A stretch of 24,000 nt of DNA from Georgenia sp. M64 (GTDB taxonomy: Bacteria; Actinomycetota; Actinomycetes; Actinomycetales; Actinomycetaceae). The stretch lies in contig NZ_CP145809.1 in the NCBI RefSeq assembly GCF_038049925.1, positions 2,180,599 through 2,204,598 on the forward strand. Reading direction: 5' to 3'. The notes beneath the pieces are model-generated. The model was not told where the DNA came from. It was given only the letters and a program-made list of their open reading frames with translations, and ran no database searches. A program made the position numbers and the translations under genes. Of this stretch, positions 4,470 to 24,000 are shown piece by piece; position 1 is the stretch's first letter; every line of letters starts with the position of its first letter.

Positions 4470-4590
4470 CCCGTCGACCGCGTTCCGGGCACCTTCCGCC
4501 ATCAGCCGAGGGGGCGTGCGGCCGGCCCGGCTGGCCTCCGCGCGCCGACGGCGTCAGGATGGTCGGTCGGCGACGGCGGGTCACGCCTCG

Positions 4591-4662
4591 CCCCAGCACC
4601 CCAGCACCCCAGCACCCCAGCACCCCAGCACCCCAGCACCCCAGCACCCCAGCACCCCAGCA
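4591..4662. repeat. Perfect 8-bp microsatellite (CCCCAGCA) x 9
   Basis: Counted directly: nine uninterrupted copies, 72 bp. The array ends 8 nt before the GGAG (4671-4674) that precedes the aglA ATG at 4679. The complement is (TGCTGGGG)9. Confidence 0.97.
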
Positions 4663-4678
4663 CCGACCCAGGAGATCG

Positions 4679-6466
4679 ATGTCCACCCTCACCCGTGCCG
4701 AGCTGACCGTCCACACCCCCACCGAGGGACGTGCCACCTGGTGGCGCGAGGCGGTCATCTACCAGGTCTACCCCCGCTCCTTCGCCGACGGTGACGGTGA
4801 CGGCATCGGCGACCTGCCCGGCATCACCGCACGGCTGGACCACCTGGCGGCGCTCGGCGTGGACGCCGTGTGGCTCTCGCCCTTCTACCGCTCCCCGCAG
4901 GCGGACGCCGGCTACGACGTCGCCGACTACCGCGACGTCGACCCGCTGTTCGGCACCCTCGCCGACGCCGACGCCCTCCTCGCCCGGGCGCACGACCTCG
5001 GCCTGCGCGTCATCGTCGACCTCGTGCCGAACCACACCTCGGACGAGCACGAGTGGTTCGCCGCGGCGCTCGCCGCCGGTCCCGGCAGCCCCGAACGGGC
5101 TCGCTACATCTTCCGCGAGGGCAACGGCGAGACCGGTGAGGAGCCCCCGAACAACTGGGAGTCCGTCTTCGGCGGCCCCGCGTGGACCCGGGTGCGCGAC
5201 CGCGCCGACGCCCCGGGCAGCGCCTGGGCCGAGGACGGGCAGTGGTACCTCCACCTGTTCGACTCCAAGCAGCCCGACCTGGACTGGGAGAACCCCGAGG
5301 TCCGGGCCGAGCTCGAGGACGTCCTGCGCTTCTGGCTCGACCGCGGCGTCGACGGCTTCCGCGTCGACGTCGCGCACGGCCTGGTCAAGGCCGCCGGCCT
5401 GCCCGACTGGGCGGGGCACGTGAGCATGGTCGAGGGCGCCGAGGACGCGGGTGACACCGATCCCGAGCCGCCCGCGGTCCGCTCCCCCGAGGGTCACCAC
5501 GCCCACCCGCCGATGTTCGACCAGGAGGGGGTGCACGAGATCTACCGCGACTGGCACCGGGTTCTCGCGGAGTACCCGGGCGACCGGGTGCTGGTGGCGG
5601 AGGCGTGGGTGGACCCCGTCGAGCGCCTCGCGCGGTACGTCCGCGCCGACGAGATGCACCAGGCCTTCAACTTCGCCTTCCTCGTCTCCCCCTGGCACGC
5701 CCCCGAGCTGCGCGACGTCATCGCCCGTTCCTACCGGGCCAACGACGCCGTCGGGGCGCCGACGACCTGGGTCCTGTCGAACCACGACGTCGTCCGGCAC
5801 GCCTCCCGGCTGGGCCTGGCCCGTACCGGCAAGGGCCCCAACGGCATCGGCGCCACGGACCCGCAGCCCGACGCCGAGCTCGGTCTTCGCCGGGCCCGCG
5901 CCGCCACGCTGCTCATGCTGGGGCTCCCGGGCTCGGCGTACCTCTACCAGGGCGAGGAGCTGGGGCTGCCCGAGCACACCGAGCTGCCGGACGAGACGCG
6001 TCAGGACCCGGCGTTCTTCCGCACCGGCGGGGCCGAGCGCGGCCGCGACGGGTGCCGGGTGCCGCTGCCCTGGGAGCAGGACGCGCCCGGGTTCGGCTTC
6101 TCCCCCACCGGCCGCACCTGGCTGCCGCAGCCTTCCGAGTGGGCCGACCTGGCTGCCGACACCCAGAGCGGCCGGCCCGGCTCGACCCTCGAGCTGTACC
6201 GCGAGACGCTGCGCCTGCGCGCGGAGCTCGGGCTGGGGCTGGGGTCGATGTCGTGGAGCGCCGGGCACGCGACGAGCCCCGACGTCGTCGCGTTCGTCAC
6301 CACGGGCGCGGCCGAGGTCCTCGTCCTGACGAACCTCGGCGACACGGACGTCGCCCTGCCGGCCGGGTGGAGCGTGCTCGTGGCCAGCGGTCCGCTCGGC
6401 GAGGGTGCCGGCGGCGAGGCGACCACCGTGCCGGCCGACACCACGGTGTGGGCGCGGCGCAGCTGA
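4679..6466 (+). CDS. aglA: GH13 alpha-glucosidase / oligo-1,6-glucosidase
   Basis: The real start is inside ORF 3719..6466: GGAG-N4-ATG at 4679, giving MSTLTRAEL...WWREAVIYQVYPRSFADGDGDGIGDL. GH13 conserved regions are present (DLVPNHTS, GFRVDVAHG, EAWV, SNHDVVRH). Confidence 0.9.
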   Translation: MSTLTRAELTVHTPTEGRATWWREAVIYQVYPRSFADGDGDGIGDLPGITARLDHLAALGVDAVWLSPFYRSPQADAGYDVADYRDVDPLFGTLADADALLARAHDLGLRVIVDLVPNHTSDEHEWFAAALAAGPGSPERARYIFREGNGETGEEPPNNWESVFGGPAWTRVRDRADAPGSAWAEDGQWYLHLFDSKQPDLDWENPEVRAELEDVLRFWLDRGVDGFRVDVAHGLVKAAGLPDWAGHVSMVEGAEDAGDTDPEPPAVRSPEGHHAHPPMFDQEGVHEIYRDWHRVLAEYPGDRVLVAEAWVDPVERLARYVRADEMHQAFNFAFLVSPWHAPELRDVIARSYRANDAVGAPTTWVLSNHDVVRHASRLGLARTGKGPNGIGATDPQPDAELGLRRARAATLLMLGLPGSAYLYQGEELGLPEHTELPDETRQDPAFFRTGGAERGRDGCRVPLPWEQDAPGFGFSPTGRTWLPQPSEWADLAADTQSGRPGSTLELYRETLRLRAELGLGLGSMSWSAGHATSPDVVAFVTTGAAEVLVLTNLGDTDVALPAGWSVLVASGPLGEGAGGEATTVPADTTVWARRS

Positions 6467-12825: not shown

Positions 12826-13736
12826 TGGACCTCCTGACGACCCTCGGCGACATGCTCGCCAGCCCCCTCATGCGCCGAGCGCTGCTCGTCGCCCTCCTCG
12901 TCGGCCTCTCCGCGCCCGTCGTGGGGACCTACCTCGTCCAGCGGCGCCTGGCCCTCCTCGGCGACGGCATCGGCCACATGGCACTGACCGGCGTGGCGGC
13001 GGGCTGGCTCGCCGGCGCCGCCGTCGGCCTCACCCCGCACGACGTCCTCGCCGTGCCGGGCGCGGTCGTGGCCGCCGTCGCGGGCGCCATCGCCGTCGAG
13101 CTCGTCCGGGAGCAGGGCCGCACCAGCGGCGACGTCGCCCTCGCGCTGCTCTTCTACGGTGGCATCGCCGGCGGCGTCCTCCTCATCGGCCTCGCCGGCG
13201 GGACGTCGGCCAACCTCACCGGCTACCTCTTCGGCTCGATCTCGACGGTGACGACGACGGACGTGTGGCTCACCGTGGTCCTCGCCGCGGTCATCCTCGG
13301 CGTGGGTCTGGGCCTGCGGCCCGCGCTGTTCGCGCTCAGCCACGACGAGGAGTTCGCCCGGGCCACCGGCCTGCCGGTCCGTGCGCTGAACATCACCGTC
13401 GCGGTGACGGCGGCTCTCACGGTGTCGGTCTCGATGCGTGTCGTGGGCGTGCTGCTCGTCTCCGCACTGATGATCGTCCCGGTCGCGGTGGCCCAGCTGG
13501 TGGCCCGGTCGTTCCGGGCGACCATGGCGCTGGCCATGACGATCGGGGTGGTCGTGACGGTGGTGGGCCTGTCCATCACGTACTTCCGGTCGCTGTCCCC
13601 CGGGGCCACGATCGTCATGCTCGCCATCGGGCTGTACGCCGTAGTATCGGTGCTGCGCCCGTCGCTCCGGCGTCCGGCCGGGGAGGACCCCCACCTGGAC
13701 GTGGACGACGACGTCGAGGTCCGGGAGGCGGTGTGA
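12825..13736 (+). CDS. znuB: Zinc ABC transporter permease
   Basis: In the frame of ORF 12273..13736. ATG 12825 overlaps the znuC TGA by 1 nt. About 8 TM helices and ZnuB/TroCD-like blocks (LALLGDGIGHMALTGVA, ALMIVPVAVAQL). Confidence 0.85.
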   Translation: MDLLTTLGDMLASPLMRRALLVALLVGLSAPVVGTYLVQRRLALLGDGIGHMALTGVAAGWLAGAAVGLTPHDVLAVPGAVVAAVAGAIAVELVREQGRTSGDVALALLFYGGIAGGVLLIGLAGGTSANLTGYLFGSISTVTTTDVWLTVVLAAVILGVGLGLRPALFALSHDEEFARATGLPVRALNITVAVTAALTVSVSMRVVGVLLVSALMIVPVAVAQLVARSFRATMALAMTIGVVVTVVGLSITYFRSLSPGATIVMLAIGLYAVVSVLRPSLRRPAGEDPHLDVDDDVEVREAV

Positions 13737-14129
13737 TGCTGCGGATGACGCGCCAGCGCGCCGCCGTCAGCGGGATGCTCGCCCGGACGCGGGACTTCCG
13801 CAGCGCGCAGCAGCTCCACGAGATGCTGCGCGAGGCGGGCGAGTCGATCGGCCTGGCCACGGTGTACCGGACGCTGCAGTCCCTCGCCGACGCCGGCGAG
13901 GTGGACGTCCTGCGCATCGCCGACGGCGAGACCCGGTACCGCCGGTGCGGCCGGTCCGAGCACCACCACCACCTGGTGTGCCGCGGCTGCGGACGCACCG
14001 TGGAGGTCGAGGGCGCCCCGGTGGAGCGGTGGGCGGCCGAGGTGGCCCGGGACAACGGCTTCGTCGAGGTGGACCACACCGCCGAGCTGTTCGGCACGTG
14101 CGCCCGCTGCGCGGAGAGGGAAGCAGCCC

Positions 14130-14137
<8 letters not shown>
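13736..14137 (+). CDS. zur: Fur-family zinc uptake regulator
   Basis: In the frame of ORF 12503..14137. ATG 13736 overlaps the znuB TGA by 1 nt. Sequence MLRMTRQRAAVSGML...ATVYRTLQSLADAGEV, with HHHHLVCRGCG and CARC metal sites. Located at the end of znuACB. Confidence 0.85.
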
Positions 14138-15650
<1,513 letters not shown>

Positions 15651-19160: not shown

Positions 19161-19165
19161 CGGTT

Positions 19166-19316
19166 CCTCGTCGCTCGTGCGTGATGGCCGGGCACGACGA
19201 CCGCCGCGACGAGGGGCCGGCCGTCAGTTGGCCTCGTCGCGGCAGAGAAGGAGCAGCTGGTGCTGCACGGACCTGCGCACATCACGAGGCTACCGCCCGC
19301 GGTGGGCACGAGTCAC
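19166..19316 (-). promoter_or_regulatory. leuA leader: putative promoter, Leu leader peptide and alternative hairpins (attenuator)
   Basis: On the minus strand: -35 GTGACT (19316-19311), an 18-nt spacer, -10 TAGCCT (19292-19287), then GTG 6 nt later. Arm A GCCGCGACGAGG (19243-19232), arm B CCTCGTCGCGGC (19214-19203) and arm C GCGACGAGG (19174-19166) follow. Arm C overlaps the leuA SD. B is complementary to both A and C. Confidence 0.6.
19224..19280 (-). CDS. Putative leucine leader peptide (18 codons: M/V-RRSVQHQLLLLCRDEAN)
   Basis: Hand translation of the reverse complement of 19224-19280. Four consecutive Leu codons, CTG CTC CTT CTC (19256-19245), come immediately before hairpin arm A. The stop, TGA 19226-19224, lies in the A/B loop. 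An in-frame GTG at 19268 is an alternative start. Confidence 0.55.
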   Translation of the reverse strand: MRRSVQHQLLLLCRDEAN

Positions 19317-19340
19317 CTTCCGGACGGGGTCGTCTCAGCA

Positions 19341-19458
19341 TTCAGGTGGTCGCCGGCGTTCAGGTGGTCGCGGTCAGCTGGGCGCGCCCTGTGGTCGGCC
19401 GCGCTCAGGTGGCGGCCGGCGTTCCAGGCGGTCGCCGGCGTTCAGGTGGTCACCGGTC
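19341..19458. repeat. 18-19-bp repeat family TTCAGGTGGTCGCCGGCG (2 + 3 copies)
   Basis: Copies at 19341-19358, 19359-19376, 19404-19421, 19422-19440 and 19441-19458. They are degenerate at 1-6 positions (A2 is the most diverged). A 27-bp unique segment splits the two clusters. Confidence 0.75.
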
Positions 19459-19539
19459 AGGCGGCGGAGTCGCGGTGACTACGGAGGAACCGGGGTGGGT
19501 CAGCCCGTCCGGCGCACCGGACTCACCCCGCTTCATCCT

Positions 19540-19623
19540 GAGTCGCCGAGGTGGGGGCGTGATTCGCCGAGGTGGGGGCGTGCTTCGCCGGGGAGGAGGC
19601 CTGACACGCCGAGGAGGGGCCTT
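19540..19623. repeat. 21-bp tandem repeat x4 (GAnTCGCCGAGGTGGGGGCGT)
   Basis: Copies at 19540-19560 and 19561-19581 match 20/21. Two more diverged copies are at 19582-19602 and 19603-19623. Confidence 0.8.
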
Positions 19624-19637
19624 GTCAGGGTCGGGAC

Positions 19638-19687
19638 GTGTCAGGGCACTCGGCTCATCGTGGTGTCAGGGCACCCGGCTCATCGTG
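19638..19687. repeat. 25-bp tandem duplication that includes the stop codon of the 140-aa gene
   Basis: GTGTCAGGGCACTCGGCTCATCGTG (19638-19662) and GTGTCAGGGCACCCGGCTCATCGTG (19663-19687) differ by 1 mismatch. The functional stop (TCA 19666-19668 on plus) lies in copy 2. An inverted copy of the TGTCAGG core, CCTGACACG, is at 19600-19608. Confidence 0.9.
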
Positions 19688-20088
19688 ATCGGTGGCGGGA
19701 TCTCCCCCGCCCAGCCCACCGGCGCGAGGGGGATCCGCCCGTCGCGGGCACGGGCGTCGAACTCCTCGCTCAGCCGCACGAGCTCACGCTGGCGCGTGTA
19801 CCCCGTGGAGCCCGCCCGGAACTGCCGCACGAGGAGCCAGCCGGCGAGCGGGAACGCGACGGCGAGGACGAGCCAGCCCACCGCGAGGCCGGACATGATC
19901 GAGGCGAGCCCCATGAGCACCACACCGGCGACCAGGCCGGCGCCGATGGTGCGCAGGGAGAAGGCGCGCGAGACCCCGTCACCCGTCACCGCGTGGAACT
20001 CCGCCCAGGCGCGTGCGCGGAACTCGGCGACGGAGCCGGCGTCCTCGGGAGCGCGTCCCGGCACACCACCGCGCCGCGCCCCGCTCAT
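19666..20088 (-). CDS. Small two-TM membrane protein of unknown function (candidate immunity/accessory protein of the T7SS cassette)
   Basis: These are the last 140 codons of ORF 19666..21504. ATG 20088 is preceded by GGAGGAGG and overlaps the stop of the upstream gene (ATGA). Two hydrophobic helices (TIGAGLVAGVVLMGLASIMSGL and AVGWLVLAVAFPLAGWLLV). The rest of the 612-aa ORF is an out-of-frame artefact. Confidence 0.65.
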   Translation of the reverse strand: MSGARRGGVPGRAPEDAGSVAEFRARAWAEFHAVTGDGVSRAFSLRTIGAGLVAGVVLMGLASIMSGLAVGWLVLAVAFPLAGWLLVRQFRAGSTGYTRQRELVRLSEEFDARARDGRIPLAPVGWAGEIPPPITMSRVP

Positions 20089-20888
20089 CGGGCCTCCTCC
20101 CCCTGCAGGACGTGCACGCTCTGGGCCACCATCGTCGCCAGGCGCGCGCACGACTCCAGCGAGCCGCGGTGGAACGTCGAGGCCGTGACGACGACCAGCG
20201 CTCCGGCCGCCGGGAAGGGCAGGTGGATCTCGGCGGAGCCGTGCTCGAGCGGCTCCGTCCCCGGCGGCACGGTCATCCCGGCGTGCTCCTGAGCGGCCCA
20301 GTCCAGGGCGTCGAGCCGCACGACGGCGGCTCCGGCGGTCACCGGGGTGGTCACGGTCTCGACGTGCGCGCCCGGGTGCCGGGCACGAAGGGCCCGGGCG
20401 AGCATGACGTGCTGCGCGACGGGGGCGTCGTCCGGCAGCGGGGGCAGGTCGTGCACCTGCACCGAGAGCTGGACGAACACACCGCGCACACCGTCGAGGA
20501 CGTCGGAGGTTCCTGCACCGCCGGCACCATCGGCGACGTCGGAGGTCTGCGCGCCGCCGGCACCGCTGTCGATTCCGGGGGTGCCTGCTCCGTCGGTGGC
20601 GTCGGACGTCCCTGCGGCGCCGGCACCGTCGGCGTCCGCCGGGTACACCGCGCTCACCAGCCCGGCCCATATCACCGGCCGGCGCAGCAGGCCCCGGCGC
20701 AGCACGAGGAGAGCTCCGGTGACCGCGTCGACGTCGGCGCCCGGCGCGTCCCGCCCGACCCGCTCGGCGATCTCCGCCCGCGCCTCGTCCTCGCTCAGGT
20801 GCAGCCGGAGGTCGAGCATGTCGCGCGGCACGAGTGCCTCGACGGCGCGCGTCACGGGTGCCGTCGTGCCGGTGGTGACCGCGCTCAT
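20085..20888 (-). CDS. Hypothetical cytoplasmic protein with internal acidic Gly/Ala repeat (T7SS-cassette gene 3)
   Basis: In the frame of ORF 20085..20999. ATG 20888 is preceded by GAGGAG and overlaps the upstream stop (ATGA). 267 aa with no TM helix. It carries a DGAG(A/G)AGTSD(A/V) repeat block at aa 84-132. I recognise no family. Confidence 0.65.
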   Translation of the reverse strand: MSAVTTGTTAPVTRAVEALVPRDMLDLRLHLSEDEARAEIAERVGRDAPGADVDAVTGALLVLRRGLLRRPVIWAGLVSAVYPADADGAGAAGTSDATDGAGTPGIDSGAGGAQTSDVADGAGGAGTSDVLDGVRGVFVQLSVQVHDLPPLPDDAPVAQHVMLARALRARHPGAHVETVTTPVTAGAAVVRLDALDWAAQEHAGMTVPPGTEPLEHGSAEIHLPFPAAGALVVVTASTFHRGSLESCARLATMVAQSVHVLQGEEAR

Positions 20889-22066
20889 CGGGCCAGCTCC
20901 TCGGACGTGAGGTAGGCGGTGCCCGCCGGGAGGTCCCACGGGTTGTCGACGTCGTGGGCGGTGACCTGCTGGACGAGCGGAACGCCCGTGATGACCCACT
21001 GCGCCTGGTTGGACTTGATCTTGACGGCCTGCCAGAGCAGCTCGTCGGCGTGCATCTCCGTGGTGGTGAAGAGGCTCGGCGGGAGCTCGACCGGCTGCCC
21101 GTCGACCCCGCGCACGACGGTGGGCGCGGTGCCCACCCCGGTGGTGCGCCGGATGTGGTTGATCCGGCTGATCGCCTTGCCGGCGATCTTCCCCACGCCG
21201 AGGCCGGCCAGCCCCCAGGCGACGGCGGACCAGTCGCCGTCAGCCGCGACGGCCAGCGCGGTGTCGGTGGCGAGACCGGCGGCGCCGACCACCGAGGCGC
21301 CCAGCGCGAGGAACGGCGCCGCGGGCGGGAAGACGAACAGCGAGACGCCGGCCGCGACGGCGAGCCCGGCGGAGGCCCAGCCGCAGAAGGCGGAGATGTC
21401 GGACAGGCTCGGCGCGATGGACCGGATCCAGTCGCCCACCTCGGAGGAGGAGACCCACCCGCCGAAGTCGCGGACCCAGTTGCCGATCGTGGCGGACCAG
21501 CCACCGCCGAAGGACATGTCCCCGGCGGCGTCGAGTCGGGCCGCGTAGGACTTCGAGGCGTCGTTGAACTCGTCGTGGAGGCGGTCGGCGGCGGCGCGCA
21601 GGGCGATCACGCGGTCGGCGGCGGCGTTCGCCGCGGCGAGGGCCTCCTCCCGCTCGCCGGGCTCACCCGCACCCGGCCCCATCTGCAGGTAGGGGACCGC
21701 GGCGGAGACGGCGGCGCGCTCGGCCCCCAGGGCGACACCGAGGTCGGCGTCGATGGTGGCCGCGCGAGCCTGGAAGCCCGCGAGGTCCTCGGCCCAGCCG
21801 GACAGGACGTCCCCGGCCTGGCCGAAGGCGGTCGCGATGGTGCTCAGGCGTGGCGGGAACTCGACCATCGCCTCCTGGTAGGCCCGCGCGGTCTGGCCGG
21901 TCCACAGGTCGGTGCGCGCCCCCTGGAGGAACGCGGACATCTCGGCGACGTCGTCGCCGAGGTCACGGAAGAGGCGCGCGAGGTCCCGGGTGCCCTCGAC
22001 GTCGCCCGGGGTGGGGTCCCAGCCGAGGTTCTCCAGCACCCGTGAGGCGGTGAGGTACCCGCTCAT
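20885..22066 (-). CDS. WXG-hairpin N-terminal domain protein with glycine-zipper hydrophobic region and small C-terminal domain (candidate T7SS-exported effector)
   Basis: ORF 20885..22066 with GGGAGAGG SD; its ATG overlaps the upstream stop (ATGA). N-terminus LGWDPTPGDV...DLWTGQTARAYQEAMVEF has W55-T-G57 between two long helices. A Gly/Trp-rich segment follows (GGGWSATIGNWVRDFGGWVSSSEVGDW). The hydrophobic block at aa ~226-297 contains GLAGLGVGKIAGKA. A 94-aa C-terminal domain completes the protein. Confidence 0.75.
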   Translation of the reverse strand: MSGYLTASRVLENLGWDPTPGDVEGTRDLARLFRDLGDDVAEMSAFLQGARTDLWTGQTARAYQEAMVEFPPRLSTIATAFGQAGDVLSGWAEDLAGFQARAATIDADLGVALGAERAAVSAAVPYLQMGPGAGEPGEREEALAAANAAADRVIALRAAADRLHDEFNDASKSYAARLDAAGDMSFGGGWSATIGNWVRDFGGWVSSSEVGDWIRSIAPSLSDISAFCGWASAGLAVAAGVSLFVFPPAAPFLALGASVVGAAGLATDTALAVAADGDWSAVAWGLAGLGVGKIAGKAISRINHIRRTTGVGTAPTVVRGVDGQPVELPPSLFTTTEMHADELLWQAVKIKSNQAQWVITGVPLVQQVTAHDVDNPWDLPAGTAYLTSEELAR

Positions 22067-22365
22067 CCGTGCCTCTCCCGGGTGACGAGCTGCTCGGCGA
22101 GACGCAGGTCGAGGGTCTCGAAGGCCTCCAGGACCTGCCCGAGGAAGGTGCCGGCCTGCCGGCCCTGCTCGCGCACCTCGTCGAGGCTGTCGTCCCAGCT
22201 GTCGGCGAACTCCACGACGTCGTCGTGGAGGATCCGCGCCCCGACCGCGAGCCCGGACATGCCGCGCAGCGTGTCGTGCACGGACGCCATGCGCTCGTCC
22301 AGGCGCGTGAGGTCGTCCCGGACGTCCTCGACGTAGGCCCGGTCGACGATCAGCTCGTCAGACAT
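22063..22365 (-). CDS. Small (100 aa) all-helical protein, WXG100/EspC-size (candidate effector partner)
   Basis: ORF 22063..22365 with ATG preceded by GGGGGAGAG. Acidic. Two predicted long helices are separated by GMSGLAVGARIL. It ends ...AFETLDLRLAEQLVTRERHG. It is translationally coupled to the 393-aa gene. Confidence 0.7.
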   Translation of the reverse strand: MSDELIVDRAYVEDVRDDLTRLDERMASVHDTLRGMSGLAVGARILHDDVVEFADSWDDSLDEVREQGRQAGTFLGQVLEAFETLDLRLAEQLVTRERHG

Positions 22366-22459: not shown

Positions 22460-22750
22460 TCAGATGCCGGCGGCCAGCTGCGAGTCGGTGTCGGCCAGCG
22501 CCTGGGCGGCGTTGGTGAGGTACTGCGACAGGTCCTGCAGGCCCTCGATGGTGGTCTGCGCGCCCTGGGTGAACTGCTGGTAGGACTCGTTGAACCGCAC
22601 CGAGGCCTGGTCCGTGACGAACCCGGACTCCACCAGGCCCTGGATCTGGGCCTGCAGGCGCTGCAGGTCGGCGACGATCTGCTCCTTCGCGGTGACGAGG
22701 TTGTTCGCCTCGCGCTGCATCTCGTCGTAGGAGACGTTGATGTTGGCCAT
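22460..22750 (-). CDS. WXG100-family (ESAT-6/EsxA-like) type VII secretion substrate
   Basis: In the frame of ORF 22460..22825. ATG 22750 is preceded by AAGGGGGAAG. 96 aa, helix-turn-helix. The layout is YukE/EsxA-like, including the C-terminal ...LTNAAQALADTDSQLAAGI. Adjacent to eccC. There is no Trp anywhere; the turn reads E-S-G-F. Confidence 0.85.
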   Translation of the reverse strand: MANINVSYDEMQREANNLVTAKEQIVADLQRLQAQIQGLVESGFVTDQASVRFNESYQQFTQGAQTTIEGLQDLSQYLTNAAQALADTDSQLAAGI

Positions 22751-22841
22751 GTGCTTCCCCCTTCTCGTGGTCCGGCCGCCTTCCGGCCGGATCCGCTGCC
22801 CTATTCCTACCGGTATGGGGGGCACCGTGTCGCGCTCCCCC

Positions 22842-22945: not shown

Positions 22946-24000
22946 TCACTGCACCAGCGGCAGCTGGACGCGTCGCACCTTGCCACGGTCCACGGCCAGC
23001 CCCCGCCCGGGCGGGAACTCGGCCCGCTGCACCCGGGGGAAGCTCGTGCGGAAGATCGTGTCGCCCTCGATGCTCTCGGGCTGCAGGGCGATCCCGCGCC
23101 GGCCGTTGCGGACCTCGGCGAGCAGCGGCCACGACGACCCCCACGCCGACGTCTCGGCCTCGGCGACGACGAGGTGGTCGTTGCGCCGGGCCGCCTGGAT
23201 CAGCTCGGTGAGCGGCCGCTCGGCCGGACCGGAGAGGAAGTCCGCGAGGCTCTCCACGACGAGGACGATCCCCGTCTCCCCGTCCCCGGGCGGGCGCCCG
23301 AACAGCGGCAGGACCTCCTTGGCGACCTCGGCGACGTCGGCCGCGCCGGTCGCCGAGCGCTCCCAGCCGGGCAGCCCGGCGAGCTCCGAGCGCCGGGCGG
23401 CCAGATGGACGAACCGGGCGTCGGGTCGGGCGGCGCGCACCGACGCCGTGAGCCAGCGCAGGGCGTTGGTGCGCCCGGACTCCGGGGGGCCGGCGACGAG
23501 GAACGTCCCGGCCGGGGCGAAGCCGACCGGCTCGAGCGTGTCGTCCGCGACACCGAGGACGGGCCACCCGTCGACGCTCGCCGGCATCTCGCGGGCGGGC
23601 ACGAGCGCCGGCAGGCGCCGGACCGGGGGCGCCTCGGGCGTGCCGCCGCGGCGCAGCGTCCCGGCGAGCGACTCGACGGCGCGGACCTGCTCGGCGAGGT
23701 TCGGGCTCCCGCCGAGGACGGCGATCTGCATCTCCAGCCCCTCGGGCGTGATGGCGCGCCCCGGCGGGGAGGCGGGGTCGAGGACGTCCTTCGGCGCACC
23801 GAGCTGGAGGTAGGCCTGCTCGTCGGCCTGGCGCATGACCACCCGCCGGGGCAGCGAGCCGGTCACCGAGATGGGGATTGCGCCGGGGCGGTCGGCCGTC
23901 ACCGCGACGTGGACCCCGGCGGAGCGGCCGTCGACGAGGATCTGGAGGAACAGCTGGTACCAGGGGGCCCGCCCGGGAACGGTCTCCCAGTCGGCCCGGA
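22946..24000 (-). CDS. eccC: Type VII secretion FtsK/SpoIIIE-family ATPase EccC (C-terminal ~350 aa; gene continues beyond window end)
   Basis: The track ORF 22946..23902 starts at an internal GTG. The same frame stays open to nt 24000 (…RADWETVPGRAPWYQLFLQILVDGRSAGVHVAV-TADRPGA…). This is the last P-loop domain (FLVAGPPESGRTNAL, IVLVVESLADF). The WXG100 gene lies immediately downstream. Confidence 0.9.
   Translation of the reverse strand, partial: RADWETVPGRAPWYQLFLQILVDGRSAGVHVAVTADRPGAIPISVTGSLPRRVVMRQADEQAYLQLGAPKDVLDPASPPGRAITPEGLEMQIAVLGGSPNLAEQVRAVESLAGTLRRGGTPEAPPVRRLPALVPAREMPASVDGWPVLGVADDTLEPVGFAPAGTFLVAGPPESGRTNALRWLTASVRAARPDARFVHLAARRSELAGLPGWERSATGAADVAEVAKEVLPLFGRPPGDGETGIVLVVESLADFLSGPAERPLTELIQAARRNDHLVVAEAETSAWGSSWPLLAEVRNGRRGIALQPESIEGDTIFRTSFPRVQRAEFPPGRGLAVDRGKVRRVQLPLVQ

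Follow-up and report, generated by a model that had tools for sequence, protein, structure and literature searches.

The window analysed here is a stretch of 24,000 nucleotides (nt) from the genome of Georgenia sp. M64 (contig NZ_CP145809.1), and our subject is a gene on its minus strand that encodes a protein of 393 amino acids (aa), hereafter the target, beside type VII secretion system (T7SS) components. In minus-strand order this part of the window carries genes for an EccC/EssC-type ATPase, a WXG100 protein, a 100-aa protein, the target, a 267-aa protein and a protein with two transmembrane (TM) helices, followed by leuA, recO and uppS, and the remaining genes of the window are housekeeping genes. 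The target is a member of a large, uncharacterised actinobacterial family found beside the T7SS ATPase, and we consider it moderately probable that it is an exported substrate (effector) of the adjacent EccC/EssC-type system, acting at a membrane. The gene and its parts are as follows:

20885..22066, minus strand: target coding sequence, 393 aa, with a PF21725-like T7SS targeting domain, a Gly/Trp-rich linker, a hydrophobic block and a 94-aa tail
22001..22027, minus strand: conserved motif L14-G-W-D-P-T-P-G-D22, directly before helix 1 (alignments; predicted local distance difference test score, pLDDT, about 95)
21512..22003, minus strand: helical targeting domain, with helices at aa 22-48, 57-127 and 135-185 and a W55-T-G57 loop (AlphaFold, profiles, hhalign)
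21392..21511, minus strand: Gly/Trp/Ser-rich amphipathic linker, aa 186-225 (composition)
21176..21391, minus strand: hydrophobic block, aa 226-297 (hydropathy, alignment; pLDDT about 70)
20888..21169, minus strand: C-terminal domain, aa 300-393, clade-restricted and matching no known family (pLDDT below 50)

The reading frame starts with ATG, and its translation agrees with the 393 aa given in the earlier note, which had been made from the letters of the window. A GC content at third codon positions (GC3) of 0.85, in a region of 72-76% GC, is consistent with coding, and two independent metagenome contigs encode a 99%-identical protein with the same neighbouring genes. Structure prediction with AlphaFold depended on the depth of the alignment supplied: a run with 7 sequences was poor (pLDDT 52), and one with 24 sequences was good only for aa 10-185, the tail being excluded from fold comparison. 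In the latter model the helices at aa 22-48, 57-127 and 135-185 reach pLDDT values of mostly 85-98, and model and alignments together give a helix-turn-helix with a conserved WxG in the turn. The earlier note had placed W55-T-G57 (nt 21904-21896, minus strand) between two long helices, with a third helical stretch running to about aa 180 and a Gly/Trp-rich segment beyond it, and had proposed modelling of the N-terminus as a check; all of this is borne out, the WXG100-like helix-WxG-helix being predicted with confidence. W55 and G57 are invariant in both family alignments (numbered W54 and G56 there, since the initial Met is omitted), and W91 joins them as invariant among 24 aligned relatives. 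The motif that precedes helix 1, LG[WFY]DPxPGD (aa 14-22), is kept in close relatives, whose alignment shows no variation at D, P and G, and recurs in more distant ones.

The assignment of this N-terminal region to a family draws on the relatives of the target as well as on the target itself, which scores 22.7 bits against Pfam PF21725 (T7SS_signal, cutoff 27), 14.6 bits against WXG100 (cutoff 27.3), 18 against NCBIfam TIGR03930 (WXG100_ESAT6, cutoff 44.85) and 15.6 bits against PPE (PF00823, cutoff 26). PF21725 is matched at E ≤ 0.01 by 21 of 24 aligned relatives, the best at 1.1e-10, and WXG100 by 13 of the 24; in a separate set of ten relatives, eight lie above the PF21725 cutoff. Because the relatives match PF21725, we regard membership of the target as well supported at the sequence level through transitive homology, despite its own sub-cutoff score. 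Given these profile matches and the helix-WxG-helix model, the N-terminus is a divergent PF21725/WXG100-superfamily T7SS targeting domain. The earlier note had suggested targeting of the WXG/LXG kind: the WXG part stands, with the PF21725 relatives, the model and the locus in its favour, whereas LXG membership is rejected, as the target has no PF04740 match at E ≤ 1. Membership of PPE was likewise rejected on profile scores, and that of EspA/EspE because the target has no match to the EspA/EspE Pfam family. Foldseek comparison with the PDB gave no match at E ≤ 0.001 and returned generic long-helix proteins (BAR domains), PPE4 being among the non-significant matches with a template modelling score (TM-score) of 0.41-0.55. 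PDB sequence and profile searches with the target, its tail, the 267-aa protein and the family of the 100-aa partner returned nothing meaningful, and a literature search found no paper on PF21725 or on the target's family. The Pfam entry describes a "putative T7SS secretion signal domain" of actinobacterial proteins, among them the WXG-RHS polymorphic toxins of Streptomyces (Zhang et al. 2012, PMC3482391).

Beyond the helices, the linker (aa 186-225) is composed of 18% G, 9% W and 20% S, and its counterpart in Streptomyces relatives reads AP(D/E)EPGxWD... The hydrophobic block that follows was described in the earlier note as some 70 hydrophobic residues with glycine zippers, and its extent (aa 226-297) can be retained, but its character requires revision. 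Only aa 226-246 and 250-273 pass a Kyte-Doolittle value of 1.6 or more, an FPPAAP turn linking the two, whereas the third helix (aa 279-297) is amphipathic; its residues include K293, K297 and the sole strict run of GxxxG (G288/G292/G296). Several looser [GAS]xxx[GAS]xxx[GAS] runs occur within aa 225-270, and P247 and G292 are invariant across 24 diverse relatives.

The size of the family became apparent only through exhaustive hidden Markov model (HMM) searches and a genome pattern scan. Word-index searches are near-blind to it, returning six matches for the single sequence, six for the 24-sequence profile and one for the tail profile, and the six word-index relatives are all conserved end to end. 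The exhaustive profile search, in contrast, yielded 1,790 representative clusters (50% identity) at E ≤ 1e-3 and 594 at E ≤ 1e-10, most of them proteins of 360-480 aa that match only profile positions ~11-310. The genome scan retrieved 80 loci, mostly from Streptomyces, with some from Catenulispora and Pseudonocardiaceae. The hydrophobic block is present in 253 of 263 sampled members, its first segment starting at a median of aa 225, and no sampled member has a hydrophobic segment starting before aa 60, where a signal-like segment would lie. Since the block occurs family-wide and P247 and G292 are invariant, it is part of the conserved module rather than of a variable toxin domain; the suggestion of the earlier note that the C-terminal half could be a membrane-inserting or depolarising toxin module needs correcting in this respect.

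Immediately around the target, the following genes are found:

22946..24000, minus strand: 3' part of an EccC/EssC-type FtsK-like ATPase gene (TIGR03925 EccCb, E 4.8e-17, below cutoff)
22460..22753, minus strand: canonical WXG100 (EsxA-like) gene, 97 aa (PF06013, 61.5 bits; TIGR03930, 45.7 bits)
22063..22365, minus strand: gene for the 100-aa partner (cluster 1), a WXG100/EspC-like helical hairpin, with an ATGA overlap with the target gene
20085..20888, minus strand: gene for the 267-aa soluble protein (cluster 22 core; hhalign), with an ATGA overlap with the target gene
19666..20088, minus strand: gene for a 140-aa protein with two TM helices, with an ATGA overlap with the 267-aa gene

The ATPase reading frame is open to position 23998 and passes off the end of the window. 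Three ATGA overlaps join the genes for the 100-aa protein, the target, the 267-aa protein and the 140-aa protein, which suggests that this four-gene cassette is a single translationally coupled operon; a scan for promoters and terminators was uninformative in such GC-rich DNA. The pairing of a gene for a protein of ~100 aa with one for a protein of ~420 aa recurs in 64 of the 80 related loci, often with multiple copies at one locus, and the partner lies directly upstream of the family gene in most of the 64 loci containing cluster 1. Within the partner family G42, F53 and W57 are invariant, and a [FY]xxx[DE] motif near the C-terminus occurs in all 17 diverse members examined (F82-E-T-L-D86 in the window). 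The [FY]xxxD form of this motif fits the FxxxD of Lap1 and the YxxxD/E export motifs of the PE/EspC-type substrates of T7SSa (PMC10801868). Eight of the 17 partner members match WXG100, one matches EspB_PE (E 0.002) and one WXG100_2, and a family representative gives a marginal match to TIGR04197 (E 0.055).

Five of the 17 also give sub-threshold matches to the EspC family, and these bear on the suggestion that the target and its partner serve the producer's own envelope (in development, integrity or signalling) in a T7SS-dependent but non-antagonistic manner, which would make them comparable to mycobacterial EspA/EspC-type pairs or Streptomyces Esx proteins. The sizes of EspC and EspA resemble the pairing of ~100 and ~390 aa seen here, and the gene stands in the core genome beside leuA, recO and uppS. 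However, the order of espA and espC is reversed relative to that of the 100-aa gene and the target, the lack of an EspA/EspE profile match noted above speaks against the analogy, and the expansion of paralogues with variable tails and RHS fusions points to conflict systems. We regard such an envelope role as very unlikely.

Of the two genes downstream of the target, the first encodes a 267-aa protein with neither a signal peptide nor a TM helix, for which no Pfam or PDB match was found. Profile comparison by hhalign links it to downstream families c3 (88.7%, E 2.6e-6) and c6 (82.3%, E 1e-5), which places it, as a distant member, in the c3/c6/c9 superfamily, whose genes lie downstream of family genes in Streptomyces. 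Among the downstream families at large, c3, c6 and c9 make up a single soluble superfamily (hhalign 95-98%), c4 and c14 constitute another, and c12 and c25 are membrane proteins; no Pfam model exists for neighbour families c2, c3, c4, c6, c9, c12, c14 and c16, nor an NCBIfam model for the tested representatives of c3 and c4. We take the 267-aa protein as a candidate chaperone or a neutraliser acting in the cytoplasm. Cassettes whose tails differ are accompanied by members of the one superfamily, from which we infer that this protein recognises the conserved part of the target, most plausibly the hydrophobic block. A PsbP/DUF1795 (Eag-like) fold was also suspected for this protein; the sole support is a PsbP-like PDB match at E 0.42, and the assignment is unsupported. 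At about aa 88-135 the window protein carries a low-complexity Gly/Ala/Asp/Thr/Ser insertion, ADADGAGAAGTSDATDGAGTPGIDSGAGGAQTSDVADGAGGAGTSDVLDG, that is absent from Georgenia, Actinomycetaceae and Streptomyces relatives.

The second downstream gene encodes the 140-aa protein with two TM helices, a homologue of which lies directly downstream of the target homologue in Georgenia satyanarayanai and in an Actinomycetaceae metagenome-assembled genome (MAG), and which may be considered a candidate membrane immunity protein. This arrangement of a soluble and a membrane protein is known from EsxX, a T7SS toxin of the glycine-zipper type, against which immunity is divided between soluble (ExiAB) and membrane (ExiCD) proteins (PMC12744356), and Tap-Eat-immunity loci are known across Actinomycetota (PMC13444075).

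The tails of family members differ greatly from the conserved module that precedes them. That of the target begins with basic residues (R300, R305, R306), followed by the conserved motifs PSLF, KxxQAxW (KGxQAxW in full), PWDLP and AYL (AYLE), and an HMM of aa 306-391 recovers it in only ~14 distinct proteins. The earlier note had called this domain an orphan, which holds insofar as it has no Pfam, NCBIfam or PDB match, but at least 13 other proteins share it. Across 246 family members the tails, typically of 80-170 aa, fall into 57 clusters, and tail type co-varies with the downstream gene family; yet c3, c6, c9 and the c22 core make up one superfamily, and the tail tracks the N-terminus. Among pairs with at least 60% N-terminal identity, 836 share a tail cluster and 3 do not, so that classical C-terminal swapping is rejected. 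In the clearest of the three exceptions, proteins P0146 and P0152 from the representative search are 95% identical over ~313 aa and diverge abruptly after GAKGAKLAA, and the Arg/Pro-rich continuation of P0146 suggests a frameshift rather than a true swap of tails. The polymorphism that the earlier note had proposed looking for, the same N-terminus with different C-termini, is thus present in the diversity of tails and in RHS fusions, but not as swapping between close relatives. That note had named an invariant C-terminus as evidence against a toxin; in the closest relatives, from Georgenia and the Actinomycetaceae MAG, the C-terminus is conserved and the T7SS locus syntenic, whereas tails are diverse across the family.

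The RHS fusions show how the module is reused. Seven Streptomyces members are 1,300-1,550 aa long, and one of them (L062:2193-6674) joins PF21725 to DUF6531, RHS repeats, an Rhs core and a C-terminal domain. Its N-terminal part aligns with the target over residues 12-263 at an hhalign probability of 98%, a homology that spans the Trp-rich linker and the first hydrophobic helix. WXG-RHS toxins of Actinobacteria have been catalogued previously (Zhang et al., PMC3482391), and share with the target the homologous N-terminal helical WxG domain; they differ in that the target has a 94-aa tail in place of the RHS cage. The PF21725 model (241 positions) covers only the helical domain, and the conserved block and the tail are in no model.

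One alternative explanation is that the target is a classical polymorphic toxin, whose activity would reside in the 94-aa tail (for example as an enzyme or as a binder of a cytoplasmic target), the block serving only as a translocation device and the 267-aa protein as cognate immunity. The 57 tail clusters, the co-variation of downstream genes with tail type and the RHS-fused relatives, which carry cargo behind the same module, are all in keeping with this explanation, and three membrane passes with the N-terminus outside would place the basic-flanked tail in the cytoplasm of the target cell. However, the domain is only ~85 aa long and has no catalytic-type conserved residues beyond the four motifs PSLF, KGxQAxW, PWDLP and AYLE, it belongs to none of the Pfam, NCBIfam or PDB families searched, close N-termini show no swapping, and the 267-aa superfamily is common to cassettes with different tails, which argues for recognition of a conserved part rather than of the tail. 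We consider this explanation improbable, and the family is instead one of diversified paralogues with modular reuse, not a classically recombining polymorphic toxin.

Comparison of loci within and beyond the genus brings a different explanation to the fore. In G. satyanarayanai the arrangement is the same as in the window and likewise lies beside leuA/recO/uppS, and in G. daeguensis, a Georgenia MAG and the Actinomycetaceae MAG the order is ATPase, WXG100, (FHA proteins), 100-aa gene and target; at retrieved loci L003, L004, L005 and L008 the ATPase and WXG100 genes are ordered as in the window. The Georgenia/Actinomycetaceae ATPase orthologues (L003:401-5185, L004:345-5552) are ~1,600-1,700 aa long and have an N-terminal FHA domain. 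Further FHA-bearing genes occur at L004:7550-9694, L005:3624-5015, L005:5016-6395 and L004:11381-12667, and the Georgenia loci include multi-TM proteins with a C-terminal FHA domain as well as homologues of the 267-aa protein fused to one at the C-terminus, which the window protein lacks. No EccB, EccD or MycP-type component is recognisable in the parts seen of the Georgenia, Actinomycetaceae MAG and window loci. The FHA features suggest a phospho-regulated T7SS variant that is T7SSd/e-like, nearer to the EssC-like, FHA/kinase-associated variants described by Garrett et al. (PMC11217815) than to classical ESX systems.

In such a setting the target might be not an exported protein but a resident membrane component or adaptor of the T7SS variant, with the hairpin of its block in the producer membrane, both ends in the cytoplasm, and the WXG-like domain and 100-aa protein docking on the EssC-like ATPase. 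This is the main rival to an effector. Each locus of Georgenia, of the Actinomycetaceae MAG and of the window has one copy of the gene, which always stands within a T7SS locus and is conserved over its full length. These loci combine, in the parts seen, a dearth of recognisable classical components with many FHA proteins and an ATPase that bears an FHA domain, much like the variant systems T7SSd and T7SSe with their poorly defined components (PMC11217815). By the positive-inside rule, moreover, the basic cluster after helix 3 (K293, K297, R300, R305, R306) agrees with a C-terminus in the cytoplasm. On the other hand, Streptomyces loci contain several paralogous cassettes with differing tails and downstream genes, which is atypical of a core component; the same module heads RHS toxins; the partner has an export-type [FY]xxxD motif; and EccC was found in the retrieved flanks (up to 10 kb) of only 20 of the 80 loci. 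Taken together, we regard a resident component as a real but unlikely possibility. Two further observations concern these Streptomyces loci: in several of them (e.g. L026, L036, L065, L073, L080) the cassettes adjoin a conserved gene block with the look of a Tad/Flp-type pilus, made up of clusters 10 (a CpaF/TadA-like ATPase), 11, 7, 15 and 17 and identified by reading representative sequences rather than by profiles, and a Ser/Thr kinase (cluster 13) often adjoins EccC.

Our preferred reading, that the target is an effector exported by the adjacent system, starts from its family membership, domain architecture, gene linkage and conserved motifs and from the reuse of the module in RHS toxins, and on this basis we infer that it is exported, enters a membrane and is toxic, with chaperone and immunity functions for the downstream genes. 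As we envisage it, the 100-aa protein would pair with the helix-WxG-helix of the target to form a four-helix bundle, in which the [FY]xxxD of the partner and the WxG of the target could make up a composite export signal read by the ATPase, while the long helices 57-127 and 135-185 might form a stalk, as in LXG, PPE and EspB-type substrates. Within the producer, the 267-aa protein would keep the hairpin (aa 226-273) and the zipper helix (aa 279-297) soluble or harmless. Once exported, the block would become inserted in a membrane, most probably a neighbouring cell's, and would either perturb it directly or carry the small basic-flanked tail across, the 140-aa two-TM protein meanwhile shielding the producer's own membrane.

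Several points weigh against this effector reading. The target falls below the curated PF21725 cutoff, and the hydrophobicity of the block is only moderate (Kyte-Doolittle 1.6-1.9); the block might just as well anchor the protein stably in the membrane of the producer. The tail is poorly modelled (pLDDT below 50) and has no catalytic signature, and tail and N-terminus diverge together, with no recombination. In the Georgenia clade the gene is present once per retrieved locus, syntenic and conserved end to end, which is the expected look of a system component, and the FHA fusion of the Georgenia 267-aa homologues is a hint of regulatory or adaptor function instead of immunity. Furthermore, our literature search found no secretion or toxicity data for any family member.

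A more specific hypothesis, which we consider possible but unlikely, is that the conserved Trp-rich linker and block, shared by the family as sampled, constitute a dedicated membrane-translocation module of actinobacterial T7SS effectors, with the c3/c6/c9/c22 superfamily as a cognate family of TM-shielding chaperones. The block, once exported, would then enter the recipient membrane and bring its cargo into the cell, be it as small as an 85-aa domain or as large as an entire RHS cage. Such a module would be the T7SS counterpart of the prePAAR-TMD (transmembrane domain)/Eag system of type VI secretion (T6SS), in which, as reportedly described by Ahmad et al. in 2020, prePAAR/TMD Rhs effectors have Eag (DUF1795) chaperones. 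The two are alike in logic, in that TM helices precede the RHS or small cargo and a dedicated soluble partner is encoded alongside, but they belong to different secretion systems without any sequence relationship, and for the 267-aa protein both fold and chaperone role are putative. The hypothesis bears on how T7SS effectors of monoderm Actinobacteria cross the recipient membrane.

The cassette also invites comparison with other T7SS substrates. As in the LXG/Lap systems of T7SSb and mycobacterial Tap/EatA, there is a WXG100-like partner immediately upstream (one gene here, instead of two or three) that carries a motif of the FxxxD or YxxxD/E type; the helical domain at the N-terminus is elongated, the locus is linked to EssC/EccC, and protective genes lie downstream, their protective role being putative in the present case (PMC10801868, PMC13444075). 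The target differs from them in lacking PF04740 and a recognisable toxin domain (Pfam, NCBIfam and PDB searches), and in having a conserved block between targeting domain and tail. With TspA, TelE and EsxX it shares a WXG-like helical N-terminus and a Gly/Ala-rich hydrophobic region with GxxxG (PMC10434224, PMC12744356), and its soluble and membrane downstream pair recalls ExiAB and ExiCD of EsxX, yet no sequence similarity to these three toxins was detected. In those proteins, moreover, the zipper is the variable C-terminal toxin, whereas the block of the target is internal, conserved and ahead of the variable tail or RHS cargo; the analogy with TspA drawn in the earlier note accordingly needs amendment. 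PE/PPE-EspG and EspC/EspA substrates of T7SSa similarly pair a helical hairpin of ~100 aa that bears an export motif with a larger, WxG-containing protein encoded beside it, and the weak PPE, PPE4 (Foldseek), EspC and EspB_PE matches, all below threshold, recall them; however, the locus has no EspG homologue, PPE proteins have no such hydrophobic block, and the organisms concerned here (Georgenia-like and Streptomyces) are monoderms, not known to possess a mycomembrane.

Parts of this picture are familiar and others differ. Substrates of T7SS that combine a WXG-like N-terminus with a Lap/Tap-like partner encoded upstream and protective genes downstream are already known (PMC10801868, PMC13444075, PMC3482391), as are the glycine-zipper membrane toxins of T7SSb (PMC10434224, PMC12744356). 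What sets the present case apart is a conserved internal hydrophobic block within the delivery module, common to small-tailed proteins and RHS toxins, and the accompaniment of that module by its own accessory superfamily, for which there is no Pfam model. It is only very recently that antagonism mediated by T7SS was demonstrated in Actinomycetota (PMC13444075), and the target is a compact representative of a very large unstudied family (~1,790 clusters at 50% identity). If the block is a delivery or pore device, the four-gene cassette would offer a small tractable system for the study of effector targeting, chaperoning and membrane entry; if the target is instead a component of the machine, it would help to define the poorly understood FHA-rich T7SS variants of Actinomycetota.

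Elsewhere in the window, two open reading frames (ORFs), at 4502-6268 (minus strand, 588 aa) and 13223-14326 (minus strand, 367 aa), have no Pfam match at E ≤ 1e-4, and the former fails a GC3-based coding filter of which the latter passes a looser version. Rfam gave no match in the window. The intergenic region between the two-TM gene and leuA (19161-19665) is rich in repeats: tandem arrays occupy 19341-19456 (18-nt period, ~6.9 copies) and 19539-19619 (21-nt period, ~3.9 copies), a third array at 19638-19687 has two copies of 25 nt, the second of which forms the last codons and stop of the two-TM gene, and two inverted repeats at 19161-19243, without an Rfam match, lie directly upstream of leuA. 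Finally, the gene at 14902-15612 (plus strand) encodes a protein that resembles resuscitation-promoting factors and comprises a transglycosylase-like domain, a linker of AP(A)-type repeats and a LysM domain.

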